Origin: an uncultured virus (IMG/VR IMGVR_UViG_3300038393_002953)
Taxonomy: Duplodnaviria > Heunggongvirae > Uroviricota > Caudoviricetes
Direction: 5' to 3' (one strand)
DNA: 20,000 nt
Virus record (IMG/VR): IMGVR_UViG_3300038393_002953
Of the stretch, positions 2,468-19,521 are shown in pieces (the first letter of the stretch is position 1; each line of letters opens with the position of its first letter). The translations under genes and the position numbers were made by a program. The notes below the pieces were generated by a model. The model was given only the letters and a program-made list of their open reading frames with translations, searched no databases and was not told the origin of the DNA.

Positions 2468-2706
2468 ACAACTACGGCAACCAGGCGCTCACCGCGCTCG
2501 GCCAGAACACCTGGCGGCTGGAGACCCGCCTCAAGGAGAAGGATCTGCGCCGCCTCCTGACGGGCTTCCGGACCATCGAGTTGAAGGAGTTCAAGGACGA
2601 TCCGAACGACCGCAACCTGCACGTCGCGGTCCTCTACGACTGGCGCAACACTCTGGGCTACGCCCACTACCGCGACATGTTCTTCCGCGCTATGTACGGC
2701 ACCTAG
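2464..2706 (+). CDS. hypothetical protein
   Basis: MNNYGNQALTALG... starts at an ATGA overlap and ends just before a terminator. Confidence 0.7.
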   Translation: MNNYGNQALTALGQNTWRLETRLKEKDLRRLLTGFRTIELKEFKDDPNDRNLHVAVLYDWRNTLGYAHYRDMFFRAMYGT

Positions 2707-2726
2707 CTCGATCCGAGCAAGCAAAG

Positions 2727-2758
2727 GGCCCCGCCGATGGCGGGGCCTCTCCTTTTTT
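2727..2758 (+). terminator. rho-independent terminator between convergent operons
   Basis: GGCCCCGCC-GAT-GGCGGGGCC stem-loop (2727-2747) followed by a T-run, with AAA upstream. Confidence 0.8.
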
Positions 2759-2773
2759 CTGGGGGGTCGGAGC

Positions 2774-2944
2774 TTATAGGGATCTCGCCTGGCAGGCCTT
2801 GCATAGGCGTCTCCCCTCCTGGTGGCTATAGGGGCTCAGTTTGCTCATGGGGAATCCGCACTGAGCGTATGAGGCGCCTTCGAGTACCAGGTGGGTGCTG
2901 CGGTGGCGCCCCTTCACGGCGGGCCTTATCGTATACATGGGCAT
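2774..2944 (-). CDS. small Cys-containing hypothetical protein
   Basis: MPMYTIRP...H...CG...CKAC. GAGG lies upstream of ATG 2944. Confidence 0.55.
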   Translation of the reverse strand: MPMYTIRPAVKGRHRSTHLVLEGASYAQCGFPMSKLSPYSHQEGRRLCKACQARSL

Positions 2945-2968
2945 GGAAGACTGCCTCTTGTCAGGACT
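2941..2968 (-). repeat. 28-bp junction element, core GAGGCA
   Basis: AGTCCTGACAA GAGGCA GTCTTCCATGC. Confidence 0.5.
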
Positions 2969-3173
2969 GGCCGAGGCGGCGCAGCATCCCGCCGTATTGC
3001 TCGTTGGTCTCGTCGAGTGCTGCCTGGAAGTCAAGGTCGCGGATCGCGTCGGTCTTGGAGGGCCTGAGGAATAAGCCCCTCAAGCGTTCTTGTTCGTCCC
3101 TTGCCGCCGTGCAGCAGGCTTGATGGCCCTCGACGCCGCAGTACCGGCAGCGGTAGATATCGGGGTTCGGCAC
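2961..3173 (-). CDS. hypothetical protein
   Basis: 70 aa, GTG start, N-terminal CRYCG...CC. Fills the gap in a tightly packed operon. Confidence 0.55.
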   Translation of the reverse strand: MPNPDIYRCRYCGVEGHQACCTAARDEQERLRGLFLRPSKTDAIRDLDFQAALDETNEQYGGMLRRLGQS

Positions 3174-3201
3174 TGGTCAGATCCTCATCCAGGTCATGAG
3201 C
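3174..3201 (-). repeat. 28-bp junction element, core GGATGA
   Basis: GCTCATGACCT GGATGA GGATCTGACCA. Confidence 0.55.
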
Positions 3202-3700
3202 GCGCCGAGGCGTGGACGTACATCTTCCGGAAGTCCCCCTCCTCGGGGGTGAAGGACTCGTGGCAGGTCATACAGTAGACGCCGTGCGTCAGCATCTCGG
3301 AGACCTGGAGCTTGGAGTCGATACGTCCGATCATCGGGTTCTCGCCGCACTCTGCGCAGCAGTCCAGCCGATAGTCCCGCTTGATGATGTTGCCCGACTC
3401 GTCGCAAAGCTCCTCCAGCGCGGCCTCGATCTGGTCGCTCGTGAGGGGGCTGTCACCTTCGCCCAGGTGTTGCCGGACCGACCACGGGCTATACAGCACA
3501 GCGCCTTCCGTCTCCATCGACTCGATAGCCCGGCGCACGATGTCGCGAGGTGCCATTGAACTGGCCTGTGTGGACATAAGGGCCTTGAAGGCCGCCTCGT
3601 ACTCGCCTTTGGCCTTGCGCTCCTTGGTGGCCGCCTCGCTGGCCTCGTCGTGCGCCTTGATGTACGCCTGTTTCAGCGCCTCCACGGTTGCTTCGGTCAT
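3194..3700 (-). CDS. hypothetical protein (N-terminal helix/coiled coil, C-terminal CxxC...CxxC zinc ribbon)
   Basis: AAGGGG RBS. CAECG and CMTC motifs. Confidence 0.75.
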   Translation of the reverse strand: MTEATVEALKQAYIKAHDEASEAATKERKAKGEYEAAFKALMSTQASSMAPRDIVRRAIESMETEGAVLYSPWSVRQHLGEGDSPLTSDQIEAALEELCDESGNIIKRDYRLDCCAECGENPMIGRIDSKLQVSEMLTHGVYCMTCHESFTPEEGDFRKMYVHASARS

Positions 3701-3725
3701 ATGGTCCCCTTCTTGAGAACGTAGA

Positions 3726-3947
3726 CTATGTGGATTCGCCGCGCTTATAGGCCTCCACCCAGTTCCGCAGGGCGATGGTCGCCAGGCGCCGCGTGCGATA
3801 GCCGGTCATCGGGACCGACTTGAGGGGCACGTGCCAGCTCCAGGTCTTGCCGTTCCGGCGCACGTCGCCGATGTAGCTGATGCCGTCGTAGACCTCGTAG
3901 TTCGCCCCGTGGCCCAGCGACGTGCCCGTGTTGATGTACTTGAGCAT
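3726..3947 (-). CDS. small hypothetical protein
   Basis: GGAGG RBS. YEVY...IGDVRR...W...GYRTRRLA pattern shared with 11546..11734. Confidence 0.7.
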   Translation of the reverse strand: MLKYINTGTSLGHGANYEVYDGISYIGDVRRNGKTWSWHVPLKSVPMTGYRTRRLATIALRNWVEAYKRGEST

Positions 3948-3965
3948 TGGTCCTCCAGATTTGCT

Positions 3966-4259
3966 TTAGGGTTTGCGCTCGTCCGCCCGTTCCCCGCCCA
4001 GCTCGGGCGCGTCGCCCTCTTGCTGGGTAATGGGGATCGGGGTGGTCTTCTTGCTGCGCCAGGCTGGCGGGAACCCGTTCTCGTCGGAACCCCACGGGAT
4101 GACCCAGCCGCCCCAGCCCCACTCCAGAATCGAGCCGTCCTCGAAATGTACCTCCTTCACGCCAGGGATGCCCATCTCGTCGGGCGGTGTGCCATAGTGG
4201 CTCTCGGTCCGTGACTTGATGATTTTCAGCGCCTTGCGGGCTTGTGATTCGTTGCTCAT
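3966..4259 (-). CDS. Trp/Gly-rich hypothetical protein
   Basis: GAGG RBS and an upstream extended -10 element. Confidence 0.7.
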   Translation of the reverse strand: MSNESQARKALKIIKSRTESHYGTPPDEMGIPGVKEVHFEDGSILEWGWGGWVIPWGSDENGFPPAWRSKKTTPIPITQQEGDAPELGGERADERKP

Positions 4260-4277
4260 GACTTCCTCTATAGGCGC

Positions 4278-4286
4278 ATTTTACCA
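4278..4286 (-). promoter_or_regulatory. extended -10 promoter element (TGG-TAAAAT)
   Basis: TGnTAAAAT in a 61-bp intergenic gap upstream of 3966..4259. Confidence 0.45.
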
Positions 4287-4320
4287 GGCATTCAGGCGCG
4301 GACTTGGGTACGGATCTGCG

Positions 4321-4674
4321 CTAGGTCGCCGGCTTCAAGGCGTGCCGGATGGCGCGCCGCCAGTTGCCAACCTCGCAGGTGCAGTAGGCGGGGTGGCTGC
4401 CGGGGCAATCGTCCCCGTGTTCGCCGTACCGCTCCATCTTGTGGTCCAGGGACTGCATCGCCATTCGGAGGCGGTCCACCTCGGCGATCAGCGCCCGCAG
4501 GTAGGGCGGCACATACTCGTCGCTCATCTTGCCGCCGCTGCAGACGTAAGGGTGCGTCAGCCAGTCGGCGACGGCCCGAGCCGCGCCTAGATCGACAACG
4601 TCACCAGGCACCGGGGCGGGGACGCCCTCGAATCTCTCGACCAACTCGCGGACGGTGGGGCTTGGATCGGGCAC
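4321..4674 (-). CDS. hypothetical protein
   Basis: GTG start after AAAGGAGG. LRALIAEVDRLR phage-type helix and H..DC...CTC motif. Confidence 0.65.
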   Translation of the reverse strand: MPDPSPTVRELVERFEGVPAPVPGDVVDLGAARAVADWLTHPYVCSGGKMSDEYVPPYLRALIAEVDRLRMAMQSLDHKMERYGEHGDDCPGSHPAYCTCEVGNWRRAIRHALKPAT

Positions 4675-4686
4675 GTCGCGCCCTCC

Positions 4687-4714
4687 TTTCGTGGGAATGC
4701 CTCTTATCGCTCGT
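4687..4714 (-). repeat. 28-bp junction element, core GAGGCA
   Basis: ACGAGCGATAA GAGGCA TTCCCACGAAA. Confidence 0.65.
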
Positions 4715-5186
4715 TCTTCCGGGCCTCGAAGGCGGCCTGGTCCTGGGGCACGCCGCAGAAGTTGACCCGGCGGAACACCTCCCAGGCTTCCTCGTCCGTG
4801 AGGTCGTGGACTACGAAGATCGACAGCCCCATATTGCTGAAGCGTCGCCGGTCCCCGCCTGTCCACTCGTTGAAGGTGTAGCCCTGGTACGGGAAGCACC
4901 CGTCCATAAACTCCATCAGCGCGGTCAGGCGTTGCTTGCCGTCCACCACTTCGCGCCAGGGGCCTTCCGAACCCGCGTCGTGGTGGCGCAAGTAGAGCGG
5001 CGGCACGCCGAGCCCGCCGATGAACGAGTCGATCAACAGGGCCTTCTGCTCGGGCGTCCAAACGTGACCGCGCTGGTAAGGCGCGTCCAGGTTGAACTCC
5101 CCTCTCTCGTACTGCATGTGGATGCCGAATAGGGTCTCGTTATGGGCGGTCACATTGAAGCGCCGCTTGAGTTCAAAACCGGCCAA
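4704..5186 (-). CDS. DUF262 (GmrSD N-terminal / ParB-like) domain protein, stand-alone
   Basis: YQRGHVW, LIDS, VVDGKQRLTA and F.RVN are the diagnostic DUF262 motifs. AAGGAGG RBS, TTG start. Confidence 0.85.
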   Translation of the reverse strand: MAGFELKRRFNVTAHNETLFGIHMQYERGEFNLDAPYQRGHVWTPEQKALLIDSFIGGLGVPPLYLRHHDAGSEGPWREVVDGKQRLTALMEFMDGCFPYQGYTFNEWTGGDRRRFSNMGLSIFVVHDLTDEEAWEVFRRVNFCGVPQDQAAFEARKNER

Positions 5187-5197
5187 GGCGGCCTCCT

Positions 5198-5225
5198 TTT
5201 CTAGCGAATCATCCCTATCTAGGCT
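5198..5225 (-). repeat. 28-bp junction element, core GGATGA
   Basis: AGCCTAGATAG GGATGA TTCGCTAGAAA. Confidence 0.55.
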
Positions 5226-5554
5226 CGCTCGACCAGTACCGATGGGACGCGAATCCAGTCGCCGTCAGGGAAGTCGATGACCAGCGTGGCATCGGTGGTT
5301 GTGGGCGTCAGGAACAACGCCTGGGTCACGCGCCCGACCTGGCCCTGATGGACGAAGAAGCCCTCAACATCGGAGCCGTCACCGAAGTACCGCATGCGAC
5401 CACCGCTGCGGACACGGTACTCGCCCTGCACGCGCAGGAGCCTCGCCACCGCCTTCTTGCGTTGGTTGCGCTTCAACCTGACAGCCTGGCCGATGCTGAA
5501 GCCATCAAGCAGGACTTCCGGCGCGTGCTGGTCCACGGAGTAGATGGGCATCAC
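5219..5554 (-). CDS. hypothetical protein (beta-rich, possibly SH3-like)
   Basis: AAAGGAGG RBS. Start is GTG 5554 or ATG 5551. Confidence 0.7.
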   Translation of the reverse strand: MMPIYSVDQHAPEVLLDGFSIGQAVRLKRNQRKKAVARLLRVQGEYRVRSGGRMRYFGDGSDVEGFFVHQGQVGRVTQALFLTPTTTDATLVIDFPDGDWIRVPSVLVERA

Positions 5555-5561
5555 GCCCTCC

Positions 5562-5589
5562 TTTCGTGCTAATGCCTCAACCCTTGCGC
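5562..5589 (-). repeat. 28-bp junction element, core GAGGCA
   Basis: GCGCAAGGGTT GAGGCA TTAGCACGAAA. Confidence 0.6.
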
Positions 5590-5843
5590 TCGGCGGCGCG
5601 TTGCTGCTTCAAATTCTCGGCGGCCTGACCGTGTTCCGCAAAGACAGCCAGGGCACCCTCAACCTCAGGGTTGTCGTAGGCGATGCCGCTCTCGTAGATA
5701 TGCCGAAGCAGAACCGCCCCGGCTCGGCGCAGGTCAAGCACGCACCAACACGCCCAACCGCAACAGCCCTCGAACTTTTTAGCATTGGCGGGGTGAGCAA
5801 CATCCAGGCAAGTCGGGCAATATGTGAAATACACGTCAGACAC
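5577..5843 (-). CDS. Cys-rich hypothetical protein
   Basis: CPTC...CCGWACWC. GTG start directly after the upstream stop. Confidence 0.6.
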   Translation of the reverse strand: MSDVYFTYCPTCLDVAHPANAKKFEGCCGWACWCVLDLRRAGAVLLRHIYESGIAYDNPEVEGALAVFAEHGQAAENLKQQRAAERKG

Positions 5844-5860
5844 TCATCCTTCGCTGGGCT
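5833..5860 (-). repeat. 28-bp junction element, core GGATGA
   Basis: AGCCCAGCGAA GGATGA GTGTCTGACGT. Confidence 0.6.
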
Positions 5861-5993
5861 TGGTCAGCGGGTCGCGGAGGTCCAGCAGCACCTCCAAGAT
5901 GAGCGCCTGGTTCGTCAACAGGGCGCTCTCGGCGTAGGTTCGGCCATAGGGCTCCTGCTCGACCTCGTTCTCAATATCGTGGCGCGTCCTCAT
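5844..5993 (-). CDS. 49-aa hypothetical protein (not in ORF track)
   Basis: Hand-translated MRTRHDIENEVEQEPYGRTYAESALLTNQALILEVLLDLRDPLTKPSEG. AAAGGGG RBS. Confidence 0.65.
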   Translation of the reverse strand: MRTRHDIENEVEQEPYGRTYAESALLTNQALILEVLLDLRDPLTKPSEG

Positions 5994-6001
5994 GGCGCCC
6001 C

Positions 6002-6029
6002 TTTCGCGGTAGTTGTCGCTCTCGCGGCT
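6002..6029 (-). repeat. 28-bp junction element, core CGACAA
   Basis: AGCCGCGAGAG CGACAA CTACCGCGAAA. Confidence 0.7.
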
Positions 6030-6035
6030 TGGTTG

Positions 6036-6305
6036 CTAGTCGTCCACCGCAGCGGCGATGGTATCAAACAGGCGGTTGAAGACCTCCTGGTGCCCCTCGC
6101 ACGACTCGCCGTCCTGGCATGTCTCGCAGTCCTGGACGTGAGCCCGGTAGGTGACCAGGCGCTTACGGAGGCGCTCCAGCTTGGCGCGGTCGGCATCCCA
6201 CTCCGACAGCATCGCTTCAAGCTCCCCGCTATGGACTGGGACGACCTTCCCTGAGGCGCGGGTGCGCGCCACGACGGCCTCTAGCAATTCCCTTCCGGTC
6301 CCCAT
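6036..6305 (-). CDS. hypothetical protein
   Basis: GGGAGG RBS. H..DCETC...C motif. Confidence 0.7.
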   Translation of the reverse strand: MGTGRELLEAVVARTRASGKVVPVHSGELEAMLSEWDADRAKLERLRKRLVTYRAHVQDCETCQDGESCEGHQEVFNRLFDTIAAAVDD

Positions 6306-6315
6306 AGGGGCCTCC

Positions 6316-6343
6316 CTTCGTGGTAGTTAGTGTTCTCGGCGCC
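6316..6343 (-). repeat. 28-bp junction element, core CACTAA
   Basis: GGCGCCGAGAA CACTAA CTACCACGAAG. Confidence 0.7.
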
Positions 6344-6357
6344 TGCTAATTTCCAAA

Positions 6358-6816
6358 CTAGACTCTCGCCAGGGCGTCGGCCAAGAACTCGCCGGGTCCG
6401 AGCTTCACCAAAAGCGGGAACGTCTCACGTTCGATGTCCCGAATAAACTCGTCCCACTTCGAGCCGATGAAGCCGATGAACTTCTCGTTGTTCCCCCGCG
6501 CCTTGTAGCGGGCGAGGTATTCGTCCTTCAGATCGATGGCCGGATAGACCAGCGCGTAGGCGATCCCGTGGTCCTTCAGGGCGCGCCTCACGACGCCATG
6601 GGACGAAATCAAGATGTAGTCCAGCATGCCCCGGTCGATGCTGGCCTGGATGTGTCGCATGTAGTTCGCCGGGAAGTCCGGGTCGCGAATGTCAGGCCCC
6701 AACCACGAGAAGTGGCTGCTGTCTGAGTCCGAAACAACCAAATCGGGTGAGTTCCGCAACACACTCTTTCCAACCCCAGGGAAACCCGCGATGACTTTGG
6801 GTTTTTCGTTACGCAT
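6358..6816 (-). CDS. P-loop NTPase / nucleotide kinase-like protein
   Basis: N-terminal Walker A VIAGFPGVGKS, then DSDSS.F, FP.NY, LVYP and Y..RGN, a small phage kinase-like pattern. Confidence 0.75.
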   Translation of the reverse strand: MRNEKPKVIAGFPGVGKSVLRNSPDLVVSDSDSSHFSWLGPDIRDPDFPANYMRHIQASIDRGMLDYILISSHGVVRRALKDHGIAYALVYPAIDLKDEYLARYKARGNNEKFIGFIGSKWDEFIRDIERETFPLLVKLGPGEFLADALARV

Positions 6817-6838
6817 TGATCCTGTCTCAAATCTGTAT

Positions 6839-7039
6839 TTAGCCTAGTGCCGCTCGTAGGTTGTCGGCTTCACCCCTGGCTTCGTCGCGTTCTCGCTTAA
6901 CCCGTTCGTATGCCTCAACAATTTGGTTACGTTCAGGCCAAGAGAGTTTAAAGCCGAAGCGACAGCGCGGCGGGTCTATGTTACACTCGTTAATAGACTC
7001 AAGGGGCCATAATTCAGCGTCCAATGGTTGATAGGTCAT
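6839..7039 (-). CDS. hypothetical protein
   Basis: MTYQPLDAELWP... with AAGGA RBS and C-terminal ERDEAR coiled coil. Confidence 0.6.
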   Translation of the reverse strand: MTYQPLDAELWPLESINECNIDPPRCRFGFKLSWPERNQIVEAYERVKRERDEARGEADNLRAALG

Positions 7040-7060
7040 AGCTTCATCCTTCTCTTGCGT
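7033..7060 (-). repeat. 28-bp junction element, core GGATGA
   Basis: ACGCAAGAGAA GGATGA AGCTATGACCT. Confidence 0.5.
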
Positions 7061-7262
7061 CGATAGCCTTGAGCATGCGGGCGACTTCCCCGACGAGACC
7101 CAGGTGGCGCTCAGATACAATCAGCACGGCACCCGCGCACCCTTGCACCCCGAAGCCTGCGTATGCCCAACCGTCACGGTCAAGCCGAACTTCGGTGTTC
7201 TCGATGAGGTCAGCCGCGCTGTTAGCGGCAGATTCAAGGATCTTTGAATTTCCGTGTGCCAT
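7044..7262 (-). CDS. hypothetical protein
   Basis: AGGAGG RBS, 72 aa. Confidence 0.65.
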   Translation of the reverse strand: MAHGNSKILESAANSAADLIENTEVRLDRDGWAYAGFGVQGCAGAVLIVSERHLGLVGEVARMLKAIDAREG

Positions 7263-7267
7263 CTATC

Positions 7268-7295
7268 CTCCTGATAAGTTATCCCTCACGCCTCA
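7268..7295 (-). repeat. possible variant junction element, core GGATAA
   Basis: TGAGGCGTGAG GGATAA CTTATCAGGAG (weaker match). Confidence 0.35.
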
Positions 7296-7489
7296 TAATG
7301 CACTCTGCAAAAGGCAGACCACGCGGCATCGTCGCGGCTCATCCATGCCCTAGCCGCTTCGGGAAGGCATTTCGAGCAGGGAAACATCATATCCATGCTG
7401 TGGATCCAGCCAACTACGCAGTACGGGTCGCCGCACTGACTACTCGCCGTTCCGCAGTCCTCACAATGGGGTTCACATCGTTTGCTCAT
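7286..7489 (-). CDS. Cys-rich hypothetical protein
   Basis: GGGAGG RBS. Nine cysteines in 67 aa, including CEDC and CSKC. Confidence 0.65.
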   Translation of the reverse strand: MSKRCEPHCEDCGTASSQCGDPYCVVGWIHSMDMMFPCSKCLPEAARAWMSRDDAAWSAFCRVHYEA

Positions 7490-7499
7490 CGCCCCTCCC

Positions 7500-7527
7500 G
7501 GGTCAGATAATTGTTGTTGTCACGCTT
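7500..7527 (-). repeat. 28-bp junction element, core CAACAA
   Basis: AAGCGTGACAA CAACAA TTATCTGACCC. 7500-7528 is 27/29 identical to 13589-13617. Confidence 0.8.
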
Positions 7528-7777
7528 TGAGCCGCACCGCACGCTGGCGGCGCTCGGTGCGCTTGCGATCGCGAGCCTCCAGCCTGCGGACGCCCTCAGC
7601 CACGTCCGAGATCTCCCACTCGCGCCGGTCGTACACCAGGCACCGGATAGACTGAATGCCACGCTCCCAGCGGTCTTTGCGGACGATCTTGCCGTCTTCC
7701 CGGAACTCCAGGTCTTCCAGCTTGGCATAGCGGAACTCCGGCATGCGGAGGTCTTGCTCGGTGACTTCGCGCTGCAT
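7520..7777 (-). CDS. hypothetical phage protein
   Basis: AAAGGAG RBS before ATG 7777. MQREVTEQDLRMPEFR...EFREDGKIVRKDRWERGI. Confidence 0.75.
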   Translation of the reverse strand: MQREVTEQDLRMPEFRYAKLEDLEFREDGKIVRKDRWERGIQSIRCLVYDRREWEISDVAEGVRRLEARDRKRTERRQRAVRLKA

Positions 7778-7786
7778 CGGCGCTCC

Positions 7787-7814
7787 TTTCGTGGGTTTTA
7801 GTGTTAGCTGACTT
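7787..7814 (-). repeat. 28-bp junction element, core CACTAA
   Basis: AAGTCAGCTAA CACTAA AACCCACGAAA. Confidence 0.65.
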
Positions 7815-7989
7815 CGACCGCAGCGCTGCCGACCATGCGAACTAGGGCATTTCGGGCGAGCGTCTTGGCTTCTTCGATGTCGTTGGCGGCCCCTTCGACA
7901 ACGCAGGCCCACTTCTCGCCGTCACCTCGGCGCTCGTCGTAGACATAGAAGGCCCACCAGCCGGGCCGCACCTCAATAAACTTGCTCAT
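7804..7989 (-). CDS. hypothetical protein
   Basis: AAGGAG RBS, 61 aa. Confidence 0.7.
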   Translation of the reverse strand: MSKFIEVRPGWWAFYVYDERRGDGEKWACVVEGAANDIEEAKTLARNALVRMVGSAAVEVS

Positions 7990-8001
7990 CCTGGTCTCCT
8001 T

Positions 8002-8029
8002 AGGTCAGATAGTTGTCGGAATCCGGACT
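8002..8029 (-). repeat. 28-bp junction element, core CGACAA
   Basis: AGTCCGGATTC CGACAA CTATCTGACCT. Confidence 0.7.
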
Positions 8030-8180
8030 AACCGCCCACCTGGCGAATTTCGGTCACTTCATGGTCTCTAATGTGGTCCGTCCAGTCCACCTGGCCGACC
8101 TTATTCTCGGCCTGGGCCTCGTTGTCGGCAGTCACGTAGAACTTGACGTGCAGGACGGCGGTCACCTCGTAGTTGGGCAT
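8028..8180 (-). CDS. 50-aa hypothetical protein (not in ORF track)
   Basis: Hand-translated MPNYEVTAVLHVKFYVTADNEAQAENKVGQVDWTDHIRDHEVTEIRQVGG. GGAGGAG RBS. Confidence 0.7.
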   Translation of the reverse strand: MPNYEVTAVLHVKFYVTADNEAQAENKVGQVDWTDHIRDHEVTEIRQVGG

Positions 8181-8197
8181 TGTGTCTCCTCCCGGCG

Positions 8198-8225
8198 TCG
8201 CCGGAGTTTTAGTGCTGTCACGAGC
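8198..8225 (-). repeat. 28-bp junction element, core CACTAA (first of island 1)
   Basis: GCTCGTGACAG CACTAA AACTCCGGCGA. Confidence 0.6.
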
Positions 8226-8343
8226 TTCAGGTGGGGCCGCGAGAACACTTGATTGCCATCTCGGCCCAGGTCTCGCCCTGTTCGAGGGTGACCGCGCCCT
8301 CGTAGCCGTCGCACGCGATGTCGCACTCGTATTCCAGCTCGAT

Positions 8344-9243
8344 CTATTGCGGCAACCCGGCGGCGTCGCAGGCGCCCTTCCAGGACTTGTGGAACTTCTT
8401 GATCTCCTTCATGGAAGGCCAGGTGCGCGGGTTCTCCGCCTTGGAGCGCGCCGCGTTGTACTCGTTCAGGCGCGGGCGGCGGCCCAGTTCGCTCCCCAGC
8501 GCCTTGAGGCAGGAGAGGTCCAGCTTGCGCTCGGGCTTGGTCTTGACGATCGCGCGCAGGCAGTCCTGGTCGGGCTCGTAGCCGGGCTCGGCCAGCTTGG
8601 CCTTCAGCGCAGGGTCGATCAGCTTGGCGATGTTCGGCCAGCTCTTGAAACGACGGTAGAGCTGGCGCGGCGCGGGCCAGTCGCGCCGCGCGGCCACGGC
8701 CTCGTACTCCGAGACGCTCGGCATGCGCCCGATCTGCACCGCGAGCGTCAGCACCATGTCCAGCAGGTCCTCGTTGGACCAATACTGGTAGTGCGTGGGC
8801 TCCGTACCGGCGGCCTGGAGCGTAGCGGTCCAGCTCCCGAAGCCCTTCATCAGCGAGGCTGAGTGGGGCGCCTCGGGATTCTGATCGCGGCGCGCCTCCT
8901 CGTACTCCTTCTCGGTGACGGAGCGGCCTCGCTCCTTGATCAATTGGCGCAGGAAGGAGACGTCCTGCTTCTTGAACGTGCTGGGGAACTCCTCGCGCAG
9001 GGGGGTGATCGCCTGCGACCAGCCGCCGCAGCGGTTGCGGATCGTCATCGCGGACGGCCAGGGGAAGATCTTCGTGCCGTTCGCGAAACCCTCGACGTTC
9101 TCGTGGCTCTCGTCGAGCCATGCTTTGAGCGCCTCCTCGCGGATCGTCTCGTACTTCTTGATCGAGGGGAGATAGCCGATGACTTTCGCGACCGTTCGGA
9201 TCGAGTCCAGCATCTCCTCCTCAGTGAACATGAGCCTTGCCAT
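8344..9243 (-). CDS. homing-endonuclease-associated repeat protein (4 repeats, no nuclease domain seen)
   Basis: Four repeats of the form L..L...lGr.P...EY...PS...i..rFgSW..a...AG. Start moved to ATG 9243, which has an AAGGAGG RBS and lies downstream of the promoter. Confidence 0.8.
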   Translation of the reverse strand: MARLMFTEEEMLDSIRTVAKVIGYLPSIKKYETIREEALKAWLDESHENVEGFANGTKIFPWPSAMTIRNRCGGWSQAITPLREEFPSTFKKQDVSFLRQLIKERGRSVTEKEYEEARRDQNPEAPHSASLMKGFGSWTATLQAAGTEPTHYQYWSNEDLLDMVLTLAVQIGRMPSVSEYEAVAARRDWPAPRQLYRRFKSWPNIAKLIDPALKAKLAEPGYEPDQDCLRAIVKTKPERKLDLSCLKALGSELGRRPRLNEYNAARSKAENPRTWPSMKEIKKFHKSWKGACDAAGLPQ

Positions 9244-9281
9244 CTCGACATTCCTCCTTGACTTCTGGGACTTCGACAATC

Positions 9282-9310
9282 AGGTTAGCACGCATGGGTA
9301 TCAAAGTCAA
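9282..9310 (-). promoter_or_regulatory. sigma70-type promoter (leftward)
   Basis: TTGACT-17 bp-TAACCT with TGn extension. Confidence 0.65.
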
Positions 9311-9338
9311 CACCTAAACAGGTTAAGGGAAGACTGTA

Positions 9339-9367
9339 TTGACAACGGTGTTAGGATCGGTTATAAC
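9339..9367 (+). promoter_or_regulatory. sigma70-type promoter (rightward)
   Basis: TTGACA-17 bp-TATAAC. Confidence 0.75.
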
Positions 9368-9393
9368 TGGGTAAGCAGGAAGGAGAGAGCCGC

Positions 9394-9954
9394 ATGCTCG
9401 CATTGTTTTGGTATTCCCCGATCCCCCATTATGCCTTGCCCAACCGCGACGGCCAGCCCGCGTTTTTCCTGGAAGGCGAGACCTTCGAGGATCTGGCCTG
9501 GGACCTGGTGGAGCAATTCTTCGAGGGTTTCATGACCCAGGACGTGATCCACATCGCCACGCCCCAGCCGGTCAGCGGCCCCTTCTTGATGGACGGCGCG
9601 GACTTCGTGCCCTCGATCACGAAGCTGAACCGCTACCACGAGGAGCGCTTCTCTGAAGCCTGGTGGGATCGCCACCAGTGGGCGCTCGTCGAGTTCCTCG
9701 GCCAGGGCCGACTGGGCGAGATGGCGATCGCGAACTTCCGCGAGATCTGCCCGCCGCGCGCGCTGCTCGCGATCTACCTCTCGGTGATGATCGGTCGGTA
9801 CTACGCGCAGTTCCACGGCTTCCCAGAGGCCCCGCTCGACGCGCGCGTCGCGATCGAGTGGTTCGCGGCCAACAACTACCTGAAATGGCTCCCCACCCAG
9901 GACTCCCAGGCGATGTCGGCCATCATGGCGGGCGACCTGAGGGTGCTGTGGTAA
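9394..9954 (+). CDS. hypothetical protein
   Basis: AAGGAG RBS, downstream of a promoter, GC3-biased codons. Confidence 0.75.
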   Translation: MLALFWYSPIPHYALPNRDGQPAFFLEGETFEDLAWDLVEQFFEGFMTQDVIHIATPQPVSGPFLMDGADFVPSITKLNRYHEERFSEAWWDRHQWALVEFLGQGRLGEMAIANFREICPPRALLAIYLSVMIGRYYAQFHGFPEAPLDARVAIEWFAANNYLKWLPTQDSQAMSAIMAGDLRVLW

Positions 9955-9973
9955 CCCGACCCGGAGGTCCCCC

Positions 9974-10291
9974 ATGCTCGACCATACCTTCGCCACCCTC
10001 AACGCGCTCCAGGCCGCGCGCGAAGCCGCGCTCGCCGAGGACAAGCCCTTCAAGGCCAACGGCCTGAAGAAGGCCTACGACCACATGCGCGCGTTCTTCG
10101 CCAACGCGACGGACGCCTCGCTGCGCCCCGAGGTGCTGCGCGCGCTGCTCGCCGATCTGCGCCAGATGCGCCACGAGGCGCTGGGCAAGAACCACTACTT
10201 CGAGTCGATCGGCCTGCGCATCGCGATCGACGCGGTGATCGACCTGCTGCACCAGGCGGAGCAGGCCAATGCCGGGCTCCGACGCGCTTAG
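9974..10291 (+). CDS. hypothetical helical protein
   Basis: GGAGG RBS, GC3-biased codons. Confidence 0.75.
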   Translation: MLDHTFATLNALQAAREAALAEDKPFKANGLKKAYDHMRAFFANATDASLRPEVLRALLADLRQMRHEALGKNHYFESIGLRIAIDAVIDLLHQAEQANAGLRRA

Positions 10292-10688
10292 TCGCATCGC
10301 CGAGCAGGTCCGCACGCTCGTCCCTCGCCACGAGGTGGCGGCGCGCATCCGAGACGCCATCCGGGGTCACGACGACGCCGCGCTCGTGGCACTGGTCCTG
10401 GCGTTCCGGCAGCCCGACCTGGACGGCTACGTCGCGCGTCTGCTCGGCGAGAACCGCCCCAAGCACGTCCCCTGCCCGGCCTGCGCCGGGGAGGGGTCTC
10501 GCGGCGAGGAGCGGATCGCGCTGCGGCAACCGTGCCTGCTGTGCGGCGGGCGCAAGGCGATCGCGGTCAGCGACAAGCCCTGCCCGGTCTGCGCCGAGGT
10601 GCGCGCGGCGCTCCGGCCCGGCGCCTTCTTCCCCTGCCCGGCCTGCGCGGGCACCACCTTCCTGCTCAAGAGAAAGGACGAGGCATGA
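10269..10688 (+). CDS. DnaJ-type zinc-finger-like protein
   Basis: Four CxxC motifs (CPACAGEG, CLLCGG, CPVC, CPACAG). Confidence 0.65.
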   Translation: MPGSDALSRIAEQVRTLVPRHEVAARIRDAIRGHDDAALVALVLAFRQPDLDGYVARLLGENRPKHVPCPACAGEGSRGEERIALRQPCLLCGGRKAIAVSDKPCPVCAEVRAALRPGAFFPCPACAGTTFLLKRKDEA

Positions 10689-10990
10689 CCATCCAGGACG
10701 GCCACTGGACCGCCGACCCGGCTCCCGCCTACGACGGCCAGGGCTACGCCACGGTCAGGACGGACGAGGCGGTTTCCTACGCGCCGTATACGGCGAGCCA
10801 CTGCCTGCGCTTCACGCCGATCACGGCCCAGGGCGTCAAGGGTTACCGCCTGGACGAGGTGCCGGTCGGCGACGTGTACGTCCTGCGGGGCGACCAGTCG
10901 TTCGGCCAGCGCCGCAAGAAGGCCGACCCGGCCAAGAAGTCGAAGCGCAAGCAGACGAAGCGCTCGCGGCTGAAGAACCGCAAGAAATAA
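10685..10990 (+). CDS. hypothetical protein with Lys/Arg-rich C-terminal tail
   Basis: ATGA overlap at 10685. Ends RRKKADPAKKSKRKQTKRSRLKNRKK. Confidence 0.7.
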   Translation: MTIQDGHWTADPAPAYDGQGYATVRTDEAVSYAPYTASHCLRFTPITAQGVKGYRLDEVPVGDVYVLRGDQSFGQRRKKADPAKKSKRKQTKRSRLKNRKK

Positions 10991-11024
10991 AAAGGCCCCC
11001 GGAGAGACGTCTCTCCGGGGGCCT
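10986..11024 (-). terminator. rho-independent terminator (perfect 32-bp palindrome) between convergent operons
   Basis: AGGCCCCCGGAGAGAC|GTCTCTCCGGGGGCCT at 10993-11024, followed by a T-rich tail on the minus strand. Confidence 0.85.
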
Positions 11025-11048
11025 CGTCTTGGCGCTCAGGCGGCTTCT

Positions 11049-11549
11049 TCAAGGGGTCTCCTCCTGCTTCGTCTCGAACAGCGCGACGGCCCGTTCGACG
11101 TGGCGCTCGCGCAAGCCCCCGTCGTCGTCCATGAAGGACGTCTGGACCAGCCGGTGCGCCAGGTGCGCCATGTCGTCCTCGTCGTCCAGGATCACGATCT
11201 GCTCGGGCGCCACGCGGTGGCGGGTCATCCATTCCTGGATCTCCAGCCCGCGCGGGCCCGGGATCCTCGGCGTGACGCCGACGATCTCGTGGGCCTCGCT
11301 CAGGCCGCGCTCGCGCAGCCAGCCCGGGAGCTGCACGAGCCCCCGCCAGGACGACGAGATCACCACCTTGGCGCCCGTGCGGCGCAGCAGCGCGTCCAGG
11401 CGCGCCACGGCCTGGCCGTCGAGCTGCTTGAGGTGCCAGGTCTCGTTGGACTCGCCCTTGTTGTAGATCTCGGCGGCCTCGATCAGGTAGGCGCGGTGGT
11501 TCAGCACGCCGTCCACGTCCAGGAAAATGTAGCGTTCGGGATCGTTCAT
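11049..11549 (-). CDS. HAD-superfamily protein (Swiss-Army-knife RNA-repair HAD type)
   Basis: IFLDVDGVLN, VVISSSWR, RG.EI..W and VILDD motifs. Confidence 0.85.
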   Translation of the reverse strand: MNDPERYIFLDVDGVLNHRAYLIEAAEIYNKGESNETWHLKQLDGQAVARLDALLRRTGAKVVISSSWRGLVQLPGWLRERGLSEAHEIVGVTPRIPGPRGLEIQEWMTRHRVAPEQIVILDDEDDMAHLAHRLVQTSFMDDDGGLRERHVERAVALFETKQEETP

Positions 11550-11734
11550 CGGGTCTCCTTGAACAGCTTGCGCGCGGCGTGGTCGCGCTGGGCATAGCCG
11601 ATGGCGACGTGGACGCCCTCCATGTTGGTGGCGTACCAGTCCCTCGGGCGTTCACGGACGAAGCCGATCAGGCGCTCGCACAGGTAGACCTTGTAGCCGC
11701 CCAGGCCGGGCTTGTAGATCAGGTCGTCGGTCAT
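11546..11734 (-). CDS. small hypothetical protein
   Basis: MTDDLIYKPGLGGYKVY... with ATGA overlaps on both sides. Confidence 0.7.
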   Translation of the reverse strand: MTDDLIYKPGLGGYKVYLCERLIGFVRERPRDWYATNMEGVHVAIGYAQRDHAARKLFKETR

Positions 11735-12048
11735 GGATCCACCTTGACGACCTTGCCGTAGACGTTCTGGCCGCCGCACCAGCCGTTGGTGTGGCCGTGG
11801 TTGTTGCCGATCTTGAAGCGCATCTCGTCGTGCCGCGAGCGGTCCACGGCCTGAACCAGGTGGACGTAGATGTTGCCGCGCACCTTGCACAGCACCGCGT
11901 CGCCGACCATGACGTCGGCGCTCCTGACCGGCGCGATCGTGACCAGCTCGCGGTGCTTGATGCGCGGCGTCATGGAGTTGCCCGAGGGGCGGAACTGGAC
12001 GGTCTCGCCGCGCTTCAGCTTCTCGATGTGGACGTCGTAGAAGCCCAT
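11731..12048 (-). CDS. S24/S26 peptidase-like protein
   Basis: GNSMTP.I (catalytic Ser motif), GD.VL, VHLV and GKV. Confidence 0.7.
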   Translation of the reverse strand: MGFYDVHIEKLKRGETVQFRPSGNSMTPRIKHRELVTIAPVRSADVMVGDAVLCKVRGNIYVHLVQAVDRSRHDEMRFKIGNNHGHTNGWCGGQNVYGKVVKVDP

Positions 12049-12049
12049 G

Positions 12050-12268
12050 CTAGGCCTCCTCGGCGAAGCGGAAGACGCATTCGCCCCGGTTCACGTCGCG
12101 GTGGGCCTGGCGCAGGATCGCCATGTCGGCGTCGTCCGGCAGCCCGGAGACGAAGGCCCGGATGATCGCGCGGTCGAGCGCCATCACCGTGCCCTCGTCG
12201 TTCGCGCTCCAGAACGGGTTGAAGCGCGTGATCGCGCGGTGGAGCTGCGCCTGGGTGTAGGTGGTCAC
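12050..12268 (-). CDS. hypothetical protein
   Basis: GTGA overlap at 12268. VTTYTQAQLHRAITRFNPFW... Confidence 0.6.
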   Translation of the reverse strand: MTTYTQAQLHRAITRFNPFWSANDEGTVMALDRAIIRAFVSGLPDDADMAILRQAHRDVNRGECVFRFAEEA

Positions 12269-13020
12269 CGGGCACCGGCCTTCTTCAGGCACTCCTGGCA
12301 GAGCTTGTCGCGGTGGAAGCGGTGGACCAGGAAGGCGTAGGTCGCGCGCGGCTTGCGCACGGGGAAGTCCGGCATGCAGAGCGAGGCCTTGGGGTCGCCG
12401 CCGAACGGGATCAGGTGGTGGACCGCATGGCCCCACGAGCGATCGCGGTCGGTCCAGACGTAGCCCTCCGGCGGCAGGATCGGGTCGGCCACCGCCATCC
12501 CGCGCGCCTGGGCGAATGCCTCGGCATGCTCGGAGACCTTCAGCGCGGCGCGGGCGATCGCCTCGGCCTCGGTCGCGCCGAAGCCCATGAACCCCGTGCG
12601 GGCGAGGACGCCGATCGTGCATGAGTAGGCGTCGTCACCGCCTCGGCCCGTGCTGGCGAGGCGGAACGGCACGTCGCCGTCCGGGTACTCGCCGGGCGCC
12701 GCGAAGGGCAGCAGCATGCGCGCGAGCCCGAGCGCCTCGAAGGCGTCCTTGACGTCGCGGTGGCAGTCGGGCGCCAGCCAGAAGGGCTTCTTGGCGCGCT
12801 TGCCCCAGCTCTCGCCGACGCGGACGTGCGAGGTGCAGTGGCAGTTGTCGCGGGGGCCGGGCCAGTCCTGGAAGACCGTGATCGGCCAGGGGGCCATCGC
12901 GCCCTCGACGAAGCCGTCCACGCGCTTCGAGTAGCCGAAGAGCTTCTCGGCCAGTTGGTTGTCGAGTTCGCGCCCGGTCAGGGGCTGGGGCTCGGCGGGG
13001 GCGTTTTCGGTGGTGATCAT
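12265..13020 (-). CDS. phage ABA-sandwich-like domain protein with C-terminal CxxC
   Basis: GRELD..LAEKLFG, P....D...AF and A.AIARAAL motifs. AAAGGA RBS. Confidence 0.65.
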   Translation of the reverse strand: MITTENAPAEPQPLTGRELDNQLAEKLFGYSKRVDGFVEGAMAPWPITVFQDWPGPRDNCHCTSHVRVGESWGKRAKKPFWLAPDCHRDVKDAFEALGLARMLLPFAAPGEYPDGDVPFRLASTGRGGDDAYSCTIGVLARTGFMGFGATEAEAIARAALKVSEHAEAFAQARGMAVADPILPPEGYVWTDRDRSWGHAVHHLIPFGGDPKASLCMPDFPVRKPRATYAFLVHRFHRDKLCQECLKKAGAR

Positions 13021-13114
13021 GCGGGTCCTTTCTCGCGAGGGGATCTTTCATCGCTAGGGTCACGGCGATGATGTCACACGAAGTATTCGTTGCTACGTTC
13101 AGCCAAGATCGCAC

Positions 13115-13142
13115 GGATCTGGGTTTGCCTCTTATCGGGGTC
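13115..13142 (-). repeat. 28-bp junction element, core GAGGCA (last of island 2)
   Basis: GACCCCGATAA GAGGCA AACCCAGATCC. 13119-13137 is 16/19 identical to 4691-4709. Confidence 0.65.
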
Positions 13143-13299
13143 AGCGCATCTGCGGCGAGTCCACGGCGGCGCGGACAGCCGTCAGCGTGATCGCGATGAT
13201 TCGCTCCCGAGCCTGCTGCTTGAGCCCTTCCGGGTGGTCGCATAGCAATTCGGACAGGCGCTCAACCCATTCGCGCTCCTTGGCTTCCCAGTCGATCAT
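13141..13299 (-). CDS. 52-aa hypothetical protein (not in ORF track)
   Basis: Hand-translated MIDWEAKEREWVERLSELLCDHPEGLKQQARERIIAITLTAVRAAVDSPQMR. GGAG RBS. Confidence 0.6.
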   Translation of the reverse strand: MIDWEAKEREWVERLSELLCDHPEGLKQQARERIIAITLTAVRAAVDSPQMR

Positions 13300-13322
13300 T
13301 GTTTGCTCCATTCTGGCGCGTA

Positions 13323-13350
13323 GCGCCGGGTAATCATCCTTCGCTGTGCT
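13323..13350 (-). repeat. 28-bp junction element, core GGATGA
   Basis: AGCACAGCGAA GGATGA TTACCCGGCGC. Left arm plus core is 16/17 identical to 5844-5860. Confidence 0.6.
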
Positions 13351-13573
13351 TGGTCGGCGGCTCGGGTTCCCCCGCCATCGCGGCTACCAGCTTCGTAAGA
13401 CCGCCCCGGTCGTCCTCGCCATTGGCACGGGCGGTCTCGCGGGGCGTGGGCTTGCCCTCGCGGACCAGCTTCGCGCACTTCCCGCACCAGCGGTCGCCGC
13501 GCAGGCGTGTAAAGTTGGCGGCTCGATTCGTGATCGCCTGGCAGCCCGCGCAGGCGTAGAGTGAAAAGCCCAT
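13334..13573 (-). CDS. CxxC-containing hypothetical protein
   Basis: AAGGAGG RBS. CAGC...CGKC. Confidence 0.7.
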   Translation of the reverse strand: MGFSLYACAGCQAITNRAANFTRLRGDRWCGKCAKLVREGKPTPRETARANGEDDRGGLTKLVAAMAGEPEPPTKHSEG

Positions 13574-13588
13574 CGGTATATCCTCCTT

Positions 13589-13616
13589 GGGTCAGATAAT
13601 TGTCGTTGTCACGCCT
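13589..13616 (-). repeat. 28-bp junction element, core CGACAA
   Basis: AGGCGTGACAA CGACAA TTATCTGACCC. Confidence 0.8.
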
Positions 13617-13884
13617 TCGCGGGCTGCCCGTGAACGGCCTCATATGCCTTAGCGAATCGGGCGGCGGCCCTGGCGTGGCTCGCCTGCGCGTCTTTCAGGT
13701 TTCTGGTAACGATTGCCAGCGTCAACTCGGCGTTCCGAAGCTCTACAACCTCGGGGGCGACGTACTTGCCAGTGCCCTCGCAGACCGAGCAGGCAACTCG
13801 GTAGCGCGCGGTCCATTCCTTCGGGCCGCATCCCGCCCCTTCGCACTTCGTGCAGGGGTTCTTCTTGATTCGGCGCGCGATCAC
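13609..13884 (-). CDS. DnaJ-type zinc-finger-like small protein
   Basis: CTKCEGAG and CSVCEGTG (CxxCxGxG). AGGAGG RBS, GTG start. Confidence 0.7.
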   Translation of the reverse strand: MIARRIKKNPCTKCEGAGCGPKEWTARYRVACSVCEGTGKYVAPEVVELRNAELTLAIVTRNLKDAQASHARAAARFAKAYEAVHGQPAKA

Positions 13885-13898
13885 CTGGGCGCCCTCCT

Positions 13899-13926
13899 CT
13901 CGGTGATAGTTAGTGCTATCGCGGTT
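13899..13926 (-). repeat. 28-bp junction element, core CACTAA (first of island 2)
   Basis: AACCGCGATAG CACTAA CTATCACCGAG, with a clear GATAG-N6-CTATC dyad. Confidence 0.7.
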
Positions 13927-16298: not shown

Positions 16299-16332
16299 GG
16301 TTTTCTCCTTCTATCATGCGGGGAACGAGGGT

Positions 16333-16362
16333 ATTGTACCCACGGCTATCACGTCCTGTCAA
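16333..16362 (-). promoter_or_regulatory. sigma70-type promoter (leftward, ligA operon)
   Basis: TTGACA-18 bp-TACAAT. Confidence 0.75.
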
Positions 16363-16389
16363 TTAAGTACGGGTTAAGCTGGCTACGTC

Positions 16390-16419
16390 TTGGCAACTCC
16401 GCTACGACTGTGTTATTCT
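16390..16419 (+). promoter_or_regulatory. sigma70-type promoter (rightward)
   Basis: TTGGCA-18 bp-TATTCT with TGn extension. Confidence 0.55.
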
Positions 16420-19251: not shown

Positions 19252-19521
19252 ATGAAATGTTTCAAGCTGGTCCGCCACGAGGACGAAAGCGGCGTGTCGG
19301 GGACCGGGGTCGTGGCCCAGGGCGTGATCTTCGACGACGGCCAGGCGGCCATGCGCTGGCTGACCAAGGACTGCTCGACGGGTATTTACGACTCGATCGA
19401 GGCCCTGGAGCGCATCCATGGCCACGGCGGCAAGACCAGGGTCGTCTACTGCGATCCCGACGCCAAGGAGTTCGCGCGGCGCCTTCACCAGTCTTTCTAC
19501 GACAAGGGGGTCGAGGGATGA
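19252..19521 (+). CDS. conserved phage hypothetical protein
   Basis: F.L.R..D.SGVSGTGVVA.GV.F.DG...RW...IHGHGG.T pattern. AAGGAG RBS. Confidence 0.8.
   Translation: MKCFKLVRHEDESGVSGTGVVAQGVIFDDGQAAMRWLTKDCSTGIYDSIEALERIHGHGGKTRVVYCDPDAKEFARRLHQSFYDKGVEG

Follow-up and report, generated by a model that had tools for sequence, protein, structure and literature searches.

A start-associated leader motif in the accessory gene islands of a large soil phage

The analysis of a 20-kb window of the uncultured soil phage contig IMGVR_UViG_3300038393_002953 (143,485 bp; ~65% G+C) revealed a short motif repeated at the beginnings of small genes. The window is the whole stretch of DNA analyzed, and all counts of motifs and open reading frames (ORFs) given below cover these 20 kb of the 143-kb genome. 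The motif is asymmetric and 16 nt long, with the consensus 5′-GAnAR-CRMYAA-HWMYC-3′. Each of its eight copies is in the minus strand, with a stop codon before it and a Shine-Dalgarno (SD) sequence after it. The first-pass annotation of this DNA had described 17 clear elements and one weaker one, and had interpreted them as 28-bp sites of the dif type that delimit mobile gene cassettes. The observation is real but was over-counted, and the element is best regarded as a start-associated phage leader motif which differs from the known ones. We infer, with a probability of about 55%, that it acts on polycistronic mRNA.

A sense-strand motif at fixed spacing from SD sequences and start codons in accessory islands

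The eight copies of the motif are located as follows.

13905-13920, minus strand: motif copy GATAGCACTAACTATC; position weight matrix (PWM) score 25.7; GTG start at 13884; SD 5 nt after the core
13595-13610, minus strand: motif copy GACAACGACAATTATC; PWM score 24.2; ATG start at 13573; overlaps the preceding TGA stop; within repeat D13
8204-8219, minus strand: motif copy GACAGCACTAAAACTC; PWM score 20.5; ATG start at 8180; core-to-SD distance 11 nt, the sole outlier
8008-8023, minus strand: motif copy GATTCCGACAACTATC; PWM score 20.0; ATG start at 7989; in the 23-nt repeat family D5
7793-7808, minus strand: motif copy GCTAACACTAAAACCC; PWM score 17.6; ATG start at 7777; overlaps the preceding TAA stop; dyad matches in 1 of 11 positions
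7506-7521, minus strand: motif copy GACAACAACAATTATC; PWM score 25.8; ATG start at 7489; overlaps a TGA stop; within repeat D13
6322-6337, minus strand: motif copy GAGAACACTAACTACC; PWM score 23.7; ATG start at 6305; SD 6 nt after the core; stop codon 20 nt upstream
6008-6023, minus strand: motif copy GAGAGCGACAACTACC; PWM score 20.7; ATG start at 5993; SD 6 nt after the core

Five of the 16 positions are invariant. The eight sites score 17.6-25.8 with the 16-nt matrix and 11.1-23.8 in a leave-one-out test, and the next-best scores elsewhere in the window are 11.1 and 8.1. In an unbiased pairwise comparison of the 50 nt ahead of 40 gene starts, four pairs scored 17-23; the top pairwise score among random coding segments (ten sets) was 15. 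The pattern CRMYAAHWMYC was also enriched against shuffled controls, with nine matches in the window versus 0.75 expected, and nine or more were reached in none of 200 shuffles. This count is partly circular, because the pattern was written from the recurring core of the sites themselves. The placement of the matches is not circular: eight of the nine lie at minus-strand stop-to-SD junctions, and the ninth (9870-9880) is in the plus strand within a gene.

All six 28-mers quoted in the first-pass annotation are present where it placed them, and the uniform orientation that it reported holds for all eight confirmed copies. Its observation that the plus-strand core operons are free of such sites was borne out, as no PWM match lies upstream of a start there. 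The number of sites was not. Only eight of the 22 island starts carry the motif; two have just its SD-proximal half, three share GAAGGATGA and nine have nothing above chance, and the quoted sites at 4687 and 5833 do not score as members by PWM. Overall, the repeated motif is real but smaller and rarer than first described.

The analysis of motif positions located GGAG or GGGG 5-8 nt after the core in seven of the eight sites. The distance is 11 nt at 8210, where a small GC hairpin (CCGGC-GAC-GCCGG) is inserted ahead of the SD. The onset of the core is 25-34 nt before the start codon in all eight cases, and such slots make up ~1.35% of minus-strand positions. The gap between the upstream stop codon and the motif varies from -5 (overlap) to +20 nt. 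Since the spacing to SD and start is fixed and that to the upstream stop is variable, the motif is part of the initiation region of the downstream gene, not of the gene boundary as such. Seven of the eight downstream genes start with ATG. The outer half of what had been called the right arm reads TGACC(C/T) or (A/G)CGAA(A/G), and the latter runs into GAAAGGAGG, a long SD which we take to fit the 16S rRNA 3′ end CCUCCUUUC. A promoter and terminator scan detected neither a sigma-70-like promoter nor a terminator at any of the eight sites.

Islands, further junction repeats and relatives

The copies belong to two minus-strand islands of small genes, which had been noted before and were found at 2774-8180 and 13141-13884. 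Island 1 consists of 18 genes, from 8180 down to 2774. Island 2 has three small genes, from 13884 down to 13141, and is followed by a larger gene starting at 13020; the copy at 13905-13920 stands at the first junction past the ligase gene. As had been proposed, each small gene has its own ribosome binding site, in the form of an SD, and expression from an upstream promoter agrees with the arrangement, both islands being inside long operons with a promoter ahead and a terminator behind. One operon has its promoter at 16362-16333 and its strong terminator at 11025-10992, with the ligase gene and island 2 in between. The second begins in a divergent region near 9300 and continues through an HNH-repeat gene and island 1 to a hairpin at 2726-2748. 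The signals and the ligase gene are listed below.

16333-16362, minus strand: sigma-70-like promoter TTGACA-18-TACAAT at the head of the island-2 operon; 11 of 12 consensus positions
13938-16103, minus strand: NAD-dependent DNA ligase gene, from domain and homology annotation
10992-11025, minus strand: intrinsic terminator at the end of the island-2 operon; 15-pair stem followed by a T run
near 9310-9282, minus strand: weaker promoter at the head of the island-1 operon, picked by eye
2726-2748, both strands: bidirectional terminator hairpin where island 1 and the converging plus-strand operon both end; stems of 9-10 pairs, all but one G-C

Near-consensus sigma-70-type boxes are present in the two divergent intergenic regions, 9280-9394 and 16299-16390; the former has TTGACA-17-TATAAC ahead of 9394 (by eye), and the latter holds the promoter listed above. 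The operon heads therefore appear to rely on host-type promoters.

The G+C content of third codon positions (GC3) is 0.90-0.96 in core genes and mostly 0.74-0.87 in island genes, with single island genes at 0.95 and 0.66. Three consecutive small genes (6839-7489, minus strand) have a GC3 of 0.49-0.63. This block begins at the motif site at 7500, the junctions inside it are without the motif, and its composition suggests a recent, not yet ameliorated acquisition. A 152-aa P-loop protein (6358-6816) is 52-56% identical to proteins of low-GC phages of Bacillus, Clostridium and Mammaliicoccus. Because island GC3 lies below that of the core and the P-loop protein is kin to those of low-GC phages, the islands are, as judged by composition and homology, accessory and horizontally acquired DNA.

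Three pairs of junctions are similar over longer stretches. D13 (7500-7528 and 13589-13617; 29 nt, 93% identical) contains two copies of the motif. D14 (28 nt, 89% identical) represents a second leader type, GAGGCATT..CACGAAAGGAGGGCG, which has only its SD-proximal part in common with the 16-nt motif. D12 (31 nt, 90% identical) is a shared 3′ gene end. Both D12 and D13 pair island 1 with island 2.

4676-4703, minus strand: second leader type, GAGGCATTccCACGAAAGGAGGGCG, first copy of D14; GTG start at 4674; shares CACGAAAGGAG with the sites at 7800 and 6320
5551-5578, minus strand: second leader type, second copy of D14; ATG start at 5551; pairwise score 19
5844-5874, minus strand: shared 3′ gene end closing with ACCAAGCcCAGCGAAGGATGA (..TKPSEG, then stop), first copy of D12; SD and stop at a back-to-back stop/start junction
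13334-13364, minus strand: shared 3′ gene end (..TKHSEG, then stop), second copy of D12

D12 falls inside the final ten codons of two genes for unrelated proteins (49 and 79 aa), whose common tail is TK(P/H)SEG, and it includes GAAGGA and the TGA stop. After the copy at 5844 the next gene starts directly at the stop. After the copy at 13334 the next likely start is ATG 13299, which has its own GGAG and lies 34 nt away, so that an SD role cannot explain both copies. Paralogy of the flanking genes was rejected as the source of the junction likeness, no pair of island proteins having E < 0.01.

Shorter words were also considered. The sequence GAAGGATGA, an SD in the last codons plus the stop, is common to three junctions (3 copies versus 0.15 expected). 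Weak enrichment was seen for TATCTGACC with one mismatch allowed (5 versus 1.8 expected; 8 of 200 shuffles reach 5), and AGAGGCA, found at three stop codons, is at chance level (3 copies versus 2.8 expected). The 9-mer CAGATCCGT follows soon after a stop codon at 4304-4312 and 13112-13120 (minus strand), in two longer island gaps that have no motif.

The gene content of the window is of phage type and includes a uracil-DNA glycosylase, a DHH phosphoesterase, the HNH-repeat protein and several PHROG families. A tRNA scan of the window found none, and an Rfam search of it gave 0 matches. The product of an 89-aa gene (19252-19521) has 65-70% amino acid identity to that of a gene of Streptomyces phages of the Stigma type (Stanwilliamsviridae, ~129 kb), in which the homologue sits two positions ahead of the terminase; two IMG/VR contigs match it at 58-62% identity. 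Because of this similarity, the virus is probably a distant high-GC relative of the large Streptomyces phages, and its host, judged by that relatedness, is probably actinobacterial.

A PWM scan of the Streptomyces-phage and IMG/VR relatives (46-53% G+C) gave no start-associated match. Region 2700-8400 had no match in 50,697 phage records by megablast and blastn. The ligase had none in IMG/VR, and in a set of 5.8 billion proteins the best homologue shares 31% identity with it; the search with the HNH-repeat protein returned only the protein itself. A 21-nt motif query had 0 matches in IMG/VR and 0 in genome_contigs, and two further junction words had 0 matches in IMG/VR. The single metagenome-contig match of the 21-nt query was rejected as chance, being in AT-rich coding DNA on an unrelated contig of 11 kb. 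No close relative was apparent in any collection searched.

The window sequence is present in nine soil or rhizosphere sequencing runs, none of them listed as RNA. Assembled contigs from four of the nine runs were aligned to the window at an 85% likeness cut-off. The long pieces listed (32 of more than 2,800) are 100% identical to the window, at a depth of 2.5-8. Joints listed for these low-depth contigs have sides of 20-37 nt, and none of them joins two motif sites.

The HNH-repeat gene (8344-9279, minus strand) ends at an in-frame TAG (8344-8346). Past this codon the same frame stays open over another 39 codons, whose third positions are rich in G/C as in coding DNA (by eye), and closes at a TGA at about 8225-8227; two more in-frame stops (TGA, TAA) follow. 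Within 8225-8346 there is a single canonical start, an ATG located 11 codons ahead of the end. Read-through of the TAG could explain this open frame, as could a nonsense mutation of recent date or initiation at a non-canonical codon, and no variant is listed for it in the contigs of the four runs.

The distantly related phage Stigma (ON456343, 83001-129455) has a stereotyped junction of its own ahead of small genes. It consists of a G+C-rich hairpin, (C)AAGCTT, a leader that varies in length and in many cases is rich in C/A, and then an SD. AAGCTT is found 47 times versus ~11 expected. For 35 of these copies an annotated start follows within 60 nt, and 32 of the 35 come after a hairpin of -8 kcal/mol or stronger. 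Some copies overlap promoter boxes of the TTGACA/TAAGGT type, in the manner of the promoter-early stem-loops (PeSLs) of T4-type phages. A literature search found no description of the AAGCTT element.

Possible functions of the element

The element probably acts on translation initiation inside the two long operons. On polycistronic mRNA it would either ensure that ribosomes load independently at each of the small genes or regulate such loading. It might do so as an unstructured, G-poor, C/A-rich enhancer or standby site 5′ of the SD; alternatively, an RNA-binding regulator might dock there and cover the SD beside it. As a likely side effect, near-identical copies would offer short homologies where genes can be swapped. 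The predicted unpaired probability of positions -35 to -16 has a mean of 0.59 at the eight sites, 0.50 at the 14 other island starts and 0.43 over the transcript as a whole.

Several points weigh against a role on mRNA. The difference in accessibility between motif sites and other island starts is small. Four island junctions with enough room (at least 25 nt from stop to start) are without the motif, which means that it is not required for expression. The identity between some copies, 26/29 to 28/31 nt, exceeds what a loose enhancer needs. The consensus also contains an inner partial palindrome (G7-C22 in all eight sites; A8-T21 and A10-T19 in five each), which is what a dimeric DNA-binding protein would read. 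Furthermore, the role on mRNA is deduced from DNA sequence, and from 20 kb of a 143-kb genome.

Symmetry bears on several of the alternatives, and it was measured in the 11-6-11 frame of the earlier annotation on an alignment of the eight 28-mers. Arm-to-arm dyad matches amount to 7, 6, 6, 6, 5, 4, 2 and 1 of 11 positions (background 3.05 +/- 1.5), the best being at 13905-13920. Pairing cells make up 44.3% of the alignment versus 46.2 +/- 3.5% with shuffled partners, and 391 of 500 shuffles were at least as high. As shuffled partners pair as well or better, there is no site-by-site correlation between the arms. An RNA hairpin as the basis of the motif was rejected, there being no covariation. 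What remains of the 11-6-11 dyad is the symmetry of the inner consensus, GA.A.-N6-.T.YC; the arm dyad is not a property of the whole family. The mirror relation proposed for the left arm of the site at 7787/7800 was confirmed as a single case, in which GTCAGCTAA and the reverse complement of TTATCTGAC, the common right arm, agree at eight of nine positions.

A DNA operator is possible, if unlikely. In this case a dimeric phage or host regulator would bind at gene boundaries and control transcription through the islands. The inner symmetry and the mirrored arm at 7800 would suit such a protein, and four of the eight sites have at least six of 11 arm matches versus 6% of background windows; the other four have almost no dyad (1-5 of 11). 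The conserved centre, CACTAA or CGACAA, is asymmetric, and all eight copies have a single orientation. An operator would not be expected to keep a fixed distance to the SD, and no operator-like copy is found at the visible promoters. Precedents are the stoperators of cluster A mycobacteriophages, the inverted repeats of the extended start-associated sequences (ESAS) of cluster K mycobacteriophages, and the conserved inverted repeats of the Streptomyces phage phiC31, on which a literature search yielded nothing usable. For ESAS, Pope et al. favored DNA-binding proteins, since departures from the repeat did not support RNA pairing (as described in PMC3203893), and there is no covariation here either.

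The near-identical junctions, the unrelated proteins that flank them and the compositional signs of acquisition form the pattern to be expected if genes are exchanged by recombination at shared junctions. It is doubtful, however, that the stereotyped junctions, that is, the motif and the three pairs of 28-31 nt, serve a system that shuffles genes in the accessory islands of large high-GC actinophages by providing its crossover points. They would then be a promoter-less counterpart of PeSLs, with an expression signal that doubles as a recombination handle, and they would possibly be helped by a protein that reads the partial dyad. That the main role of the junctions is to provide short homologies for homologous or microhomology-mediated insertion, deletion and swapping of genes is improbable.

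The D12, D13 and D14 pairs, 89-93% identical over 28-31 nt between unrelated flanking proteins, would fit such linkers, as would the bridging of the two islands by D12 and D13 and the position of D12 inside the last 10 codons of unrelated genes. The lowered GC3 of the islands, the 0.49-0.63 block that begins at the 7500 site and the similarity of the 6358-6816 protein to low-GC phage proteins point the same way. PeSL cassettes of T4-type phages set a precedent (PMC2839356), and the boundary sequences of lambdoid phages are named as another. Against linkers, no relative that shares the region and could show breakpoints was found in the collections searched. The homologies are far shorter than the ~100-bp PeSLs, and no unit of promoter plus terminator moves with the genes. 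Shared junctions can also result from selection on a common expression signal.

The motif is very unlikely to be a phage-specific promoter of a middle or late class, read by a phage sigma factor or RNA polymerase from a transcript start just before the SD. In a genome of 65% G+C the motif is enriched in A/T; all copies face the same way and stand at high density in the accessory region, at a fixed short distance ahead of starts. However, since the gap between motif and SD is just 5-8 nt, transcripts would begin at or inside the SD. There is no conserved partner of the -35 type, the flanks holding 0.30 bits per column. Ordinary TTGACA/TACAAT promoters occur elsewhere in the phage, and no RNA polymerase or sigma domain was detected among the 42 ORFs.

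The model of the first-pass annotation, in which the 28-mers are 11-6-11 core sites for a phage tyrosine recombinase or host XerCD and the genes are excisable cassettes, is extremely unlikely. A 28-bp frame can be drawn, the motif is lower in G+C than its surroundings, and it has an inner A/T-rich partial palindrome around 6 bp. The inner ACAA-N6-TTAT of two or three sites resembles the ATAA-N6-TTAT of dif examples printed in PMC2731167. Hexamers are identical within subgroups (CACTAA in four sites, CGACAA in three), as strand exchange needs, direct repeats would excise circles, and genes lie between the sites as they do between pdif sites of Acinetobacter plasmids. In dif, however, the binding arms are conserved, most of all the XerD arm and the inner bases, the central hexamer is least conserved, and ~16 of 28 nt are palindromic, according to the account in PMC2731167. 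Here the order is reversed: the hexamer with inner bases holds 1.21 bits per column, the left arm 0.68 and the right arm 0.65. Palindromy is missing in half of the sites, the arms are not correlated, and the outer right arm consists largely of the bases leading up to the SD, at a locked distance from it. All sites are direct, unlike pdif modules, whose orientation must alternate (C/D, then D/C) and whose exchange needs identical spacers, as stated in PMC13141974.

Among the 42 ORFs there was no match to a recombinase domain, Xer-type enzymes included, in accordance with the earlier statement that the window encodes none. The claim that attC hairpins are missing also stood: no long local inverted repeats are present at the junctions. 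The window is not evidence for a new recombinase-driven cassette system. Integron gene cassettes were rejected as well, as there is no attC-type hairpin at the junctions and no integrase among the 42 ORFs, although an upstream operon promoter does exist.

Comparison with known systems

Translational enhancers rich in CA or A/U beside the SD are exemplified by the epsilon leader of T7 gene 10. Like them, the motif is a single-stranded stretch that is poor in G and rich in C/A, directly precedes the SD and is found in the sense orientation only. Such enhancers are loose in sequence, whereas a specific 16-nt word with invariant positions recurs here, and recognition by a specific partner is therefore suggested. 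The stoperators of cluster A mycobacteriophages are repressor-binding DNA sites of temperate phages and have no fixed relation to the SD. They too are short asymmetric sites scattered in short intergenic gaps and oriented with transcription; the difference is that the motif is SD-linked. Cluster A stoperators are also mentioned in the paper on ESAS (PMC3203893).

PeSLs of T4-type phages are ~100 bp long and combine a consensus sigma-70 promoter with a terminator stem-loop (Arbiol et al. 2010, PMC2839356). For these elements mini-circles and breakpoints were shown, with gene exchange at shared junctions (PMC2839356). They resemble the junctions described here in being repeated stop-to-SD modules, with copies common to unrelated genes and a proposed shuffling of genes between copies. 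They are also concentrated in hyperplastic regions ahead of ORFan genes, comparable to the islands. The difference is that the eight sites have no promoter or terminator, only the small hairpin at 8210, and that the shared stretch is 16-31 nt. Junction pairs common to unrelated genes bear on how phages gain and swap small accessory genes.

The closest comparison is with the start-associated sequences (SAS) and ESAS of cluster K mycobacteriophages. There, asymmetric repeats of uniform orientation adjoin the starts, mostly ATG, of non-structural genes that belong to unrelated families, and about half of the SAS have an imperfect inverted repeat just upstream, the ESAS, which in the description given does not behave as an RNA hairpin (PMC3203893). 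Since 2011, when such start-associated repeats became known in mycobacteriophages, no mechanism has been proven for them; a 2025 survey describes the role of SAS as still unverified (PMC12699233). The motif is likewise short, asymmetric and in one orientation, in the sense strand in eight of eight cases, 25-34 nt before starts of accessory genes which are mostly ATG, and some copies overlap the upstream stop codon. Its imperfect inverted repeat also lacks the behavior of an RNA hairpin.

There are clear differences. The SAS consensus, GGGATAGGAGCCC, includes the SD and lies 3-7 bp from the start; here the sequence differs, and the SD is a separate element that follows the motif after 5-8 nt, which puts the motif in the position of ESAS. 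ESAS have 17-bp arms and a variable spacer, while the dyad here consists of 5+5 inner bases around a conserved 6-mer. The phages with SAS and ESAS are 60-kb temperate mycobacteriophages, and the present one is a ~143-kb phage related to Streptomyces phages. With its separate SD, fixed spacing and short defined word, the motif is a clean substrate for telling action on the ribosome, on a regulator or on DNA apart. Overall, it is by analogy an SAS/ESAS-like element and not a member of that family, and as a second, unrelated example in a large soil actinophage it indicates that the arrangement is not peculiar to one cluster.

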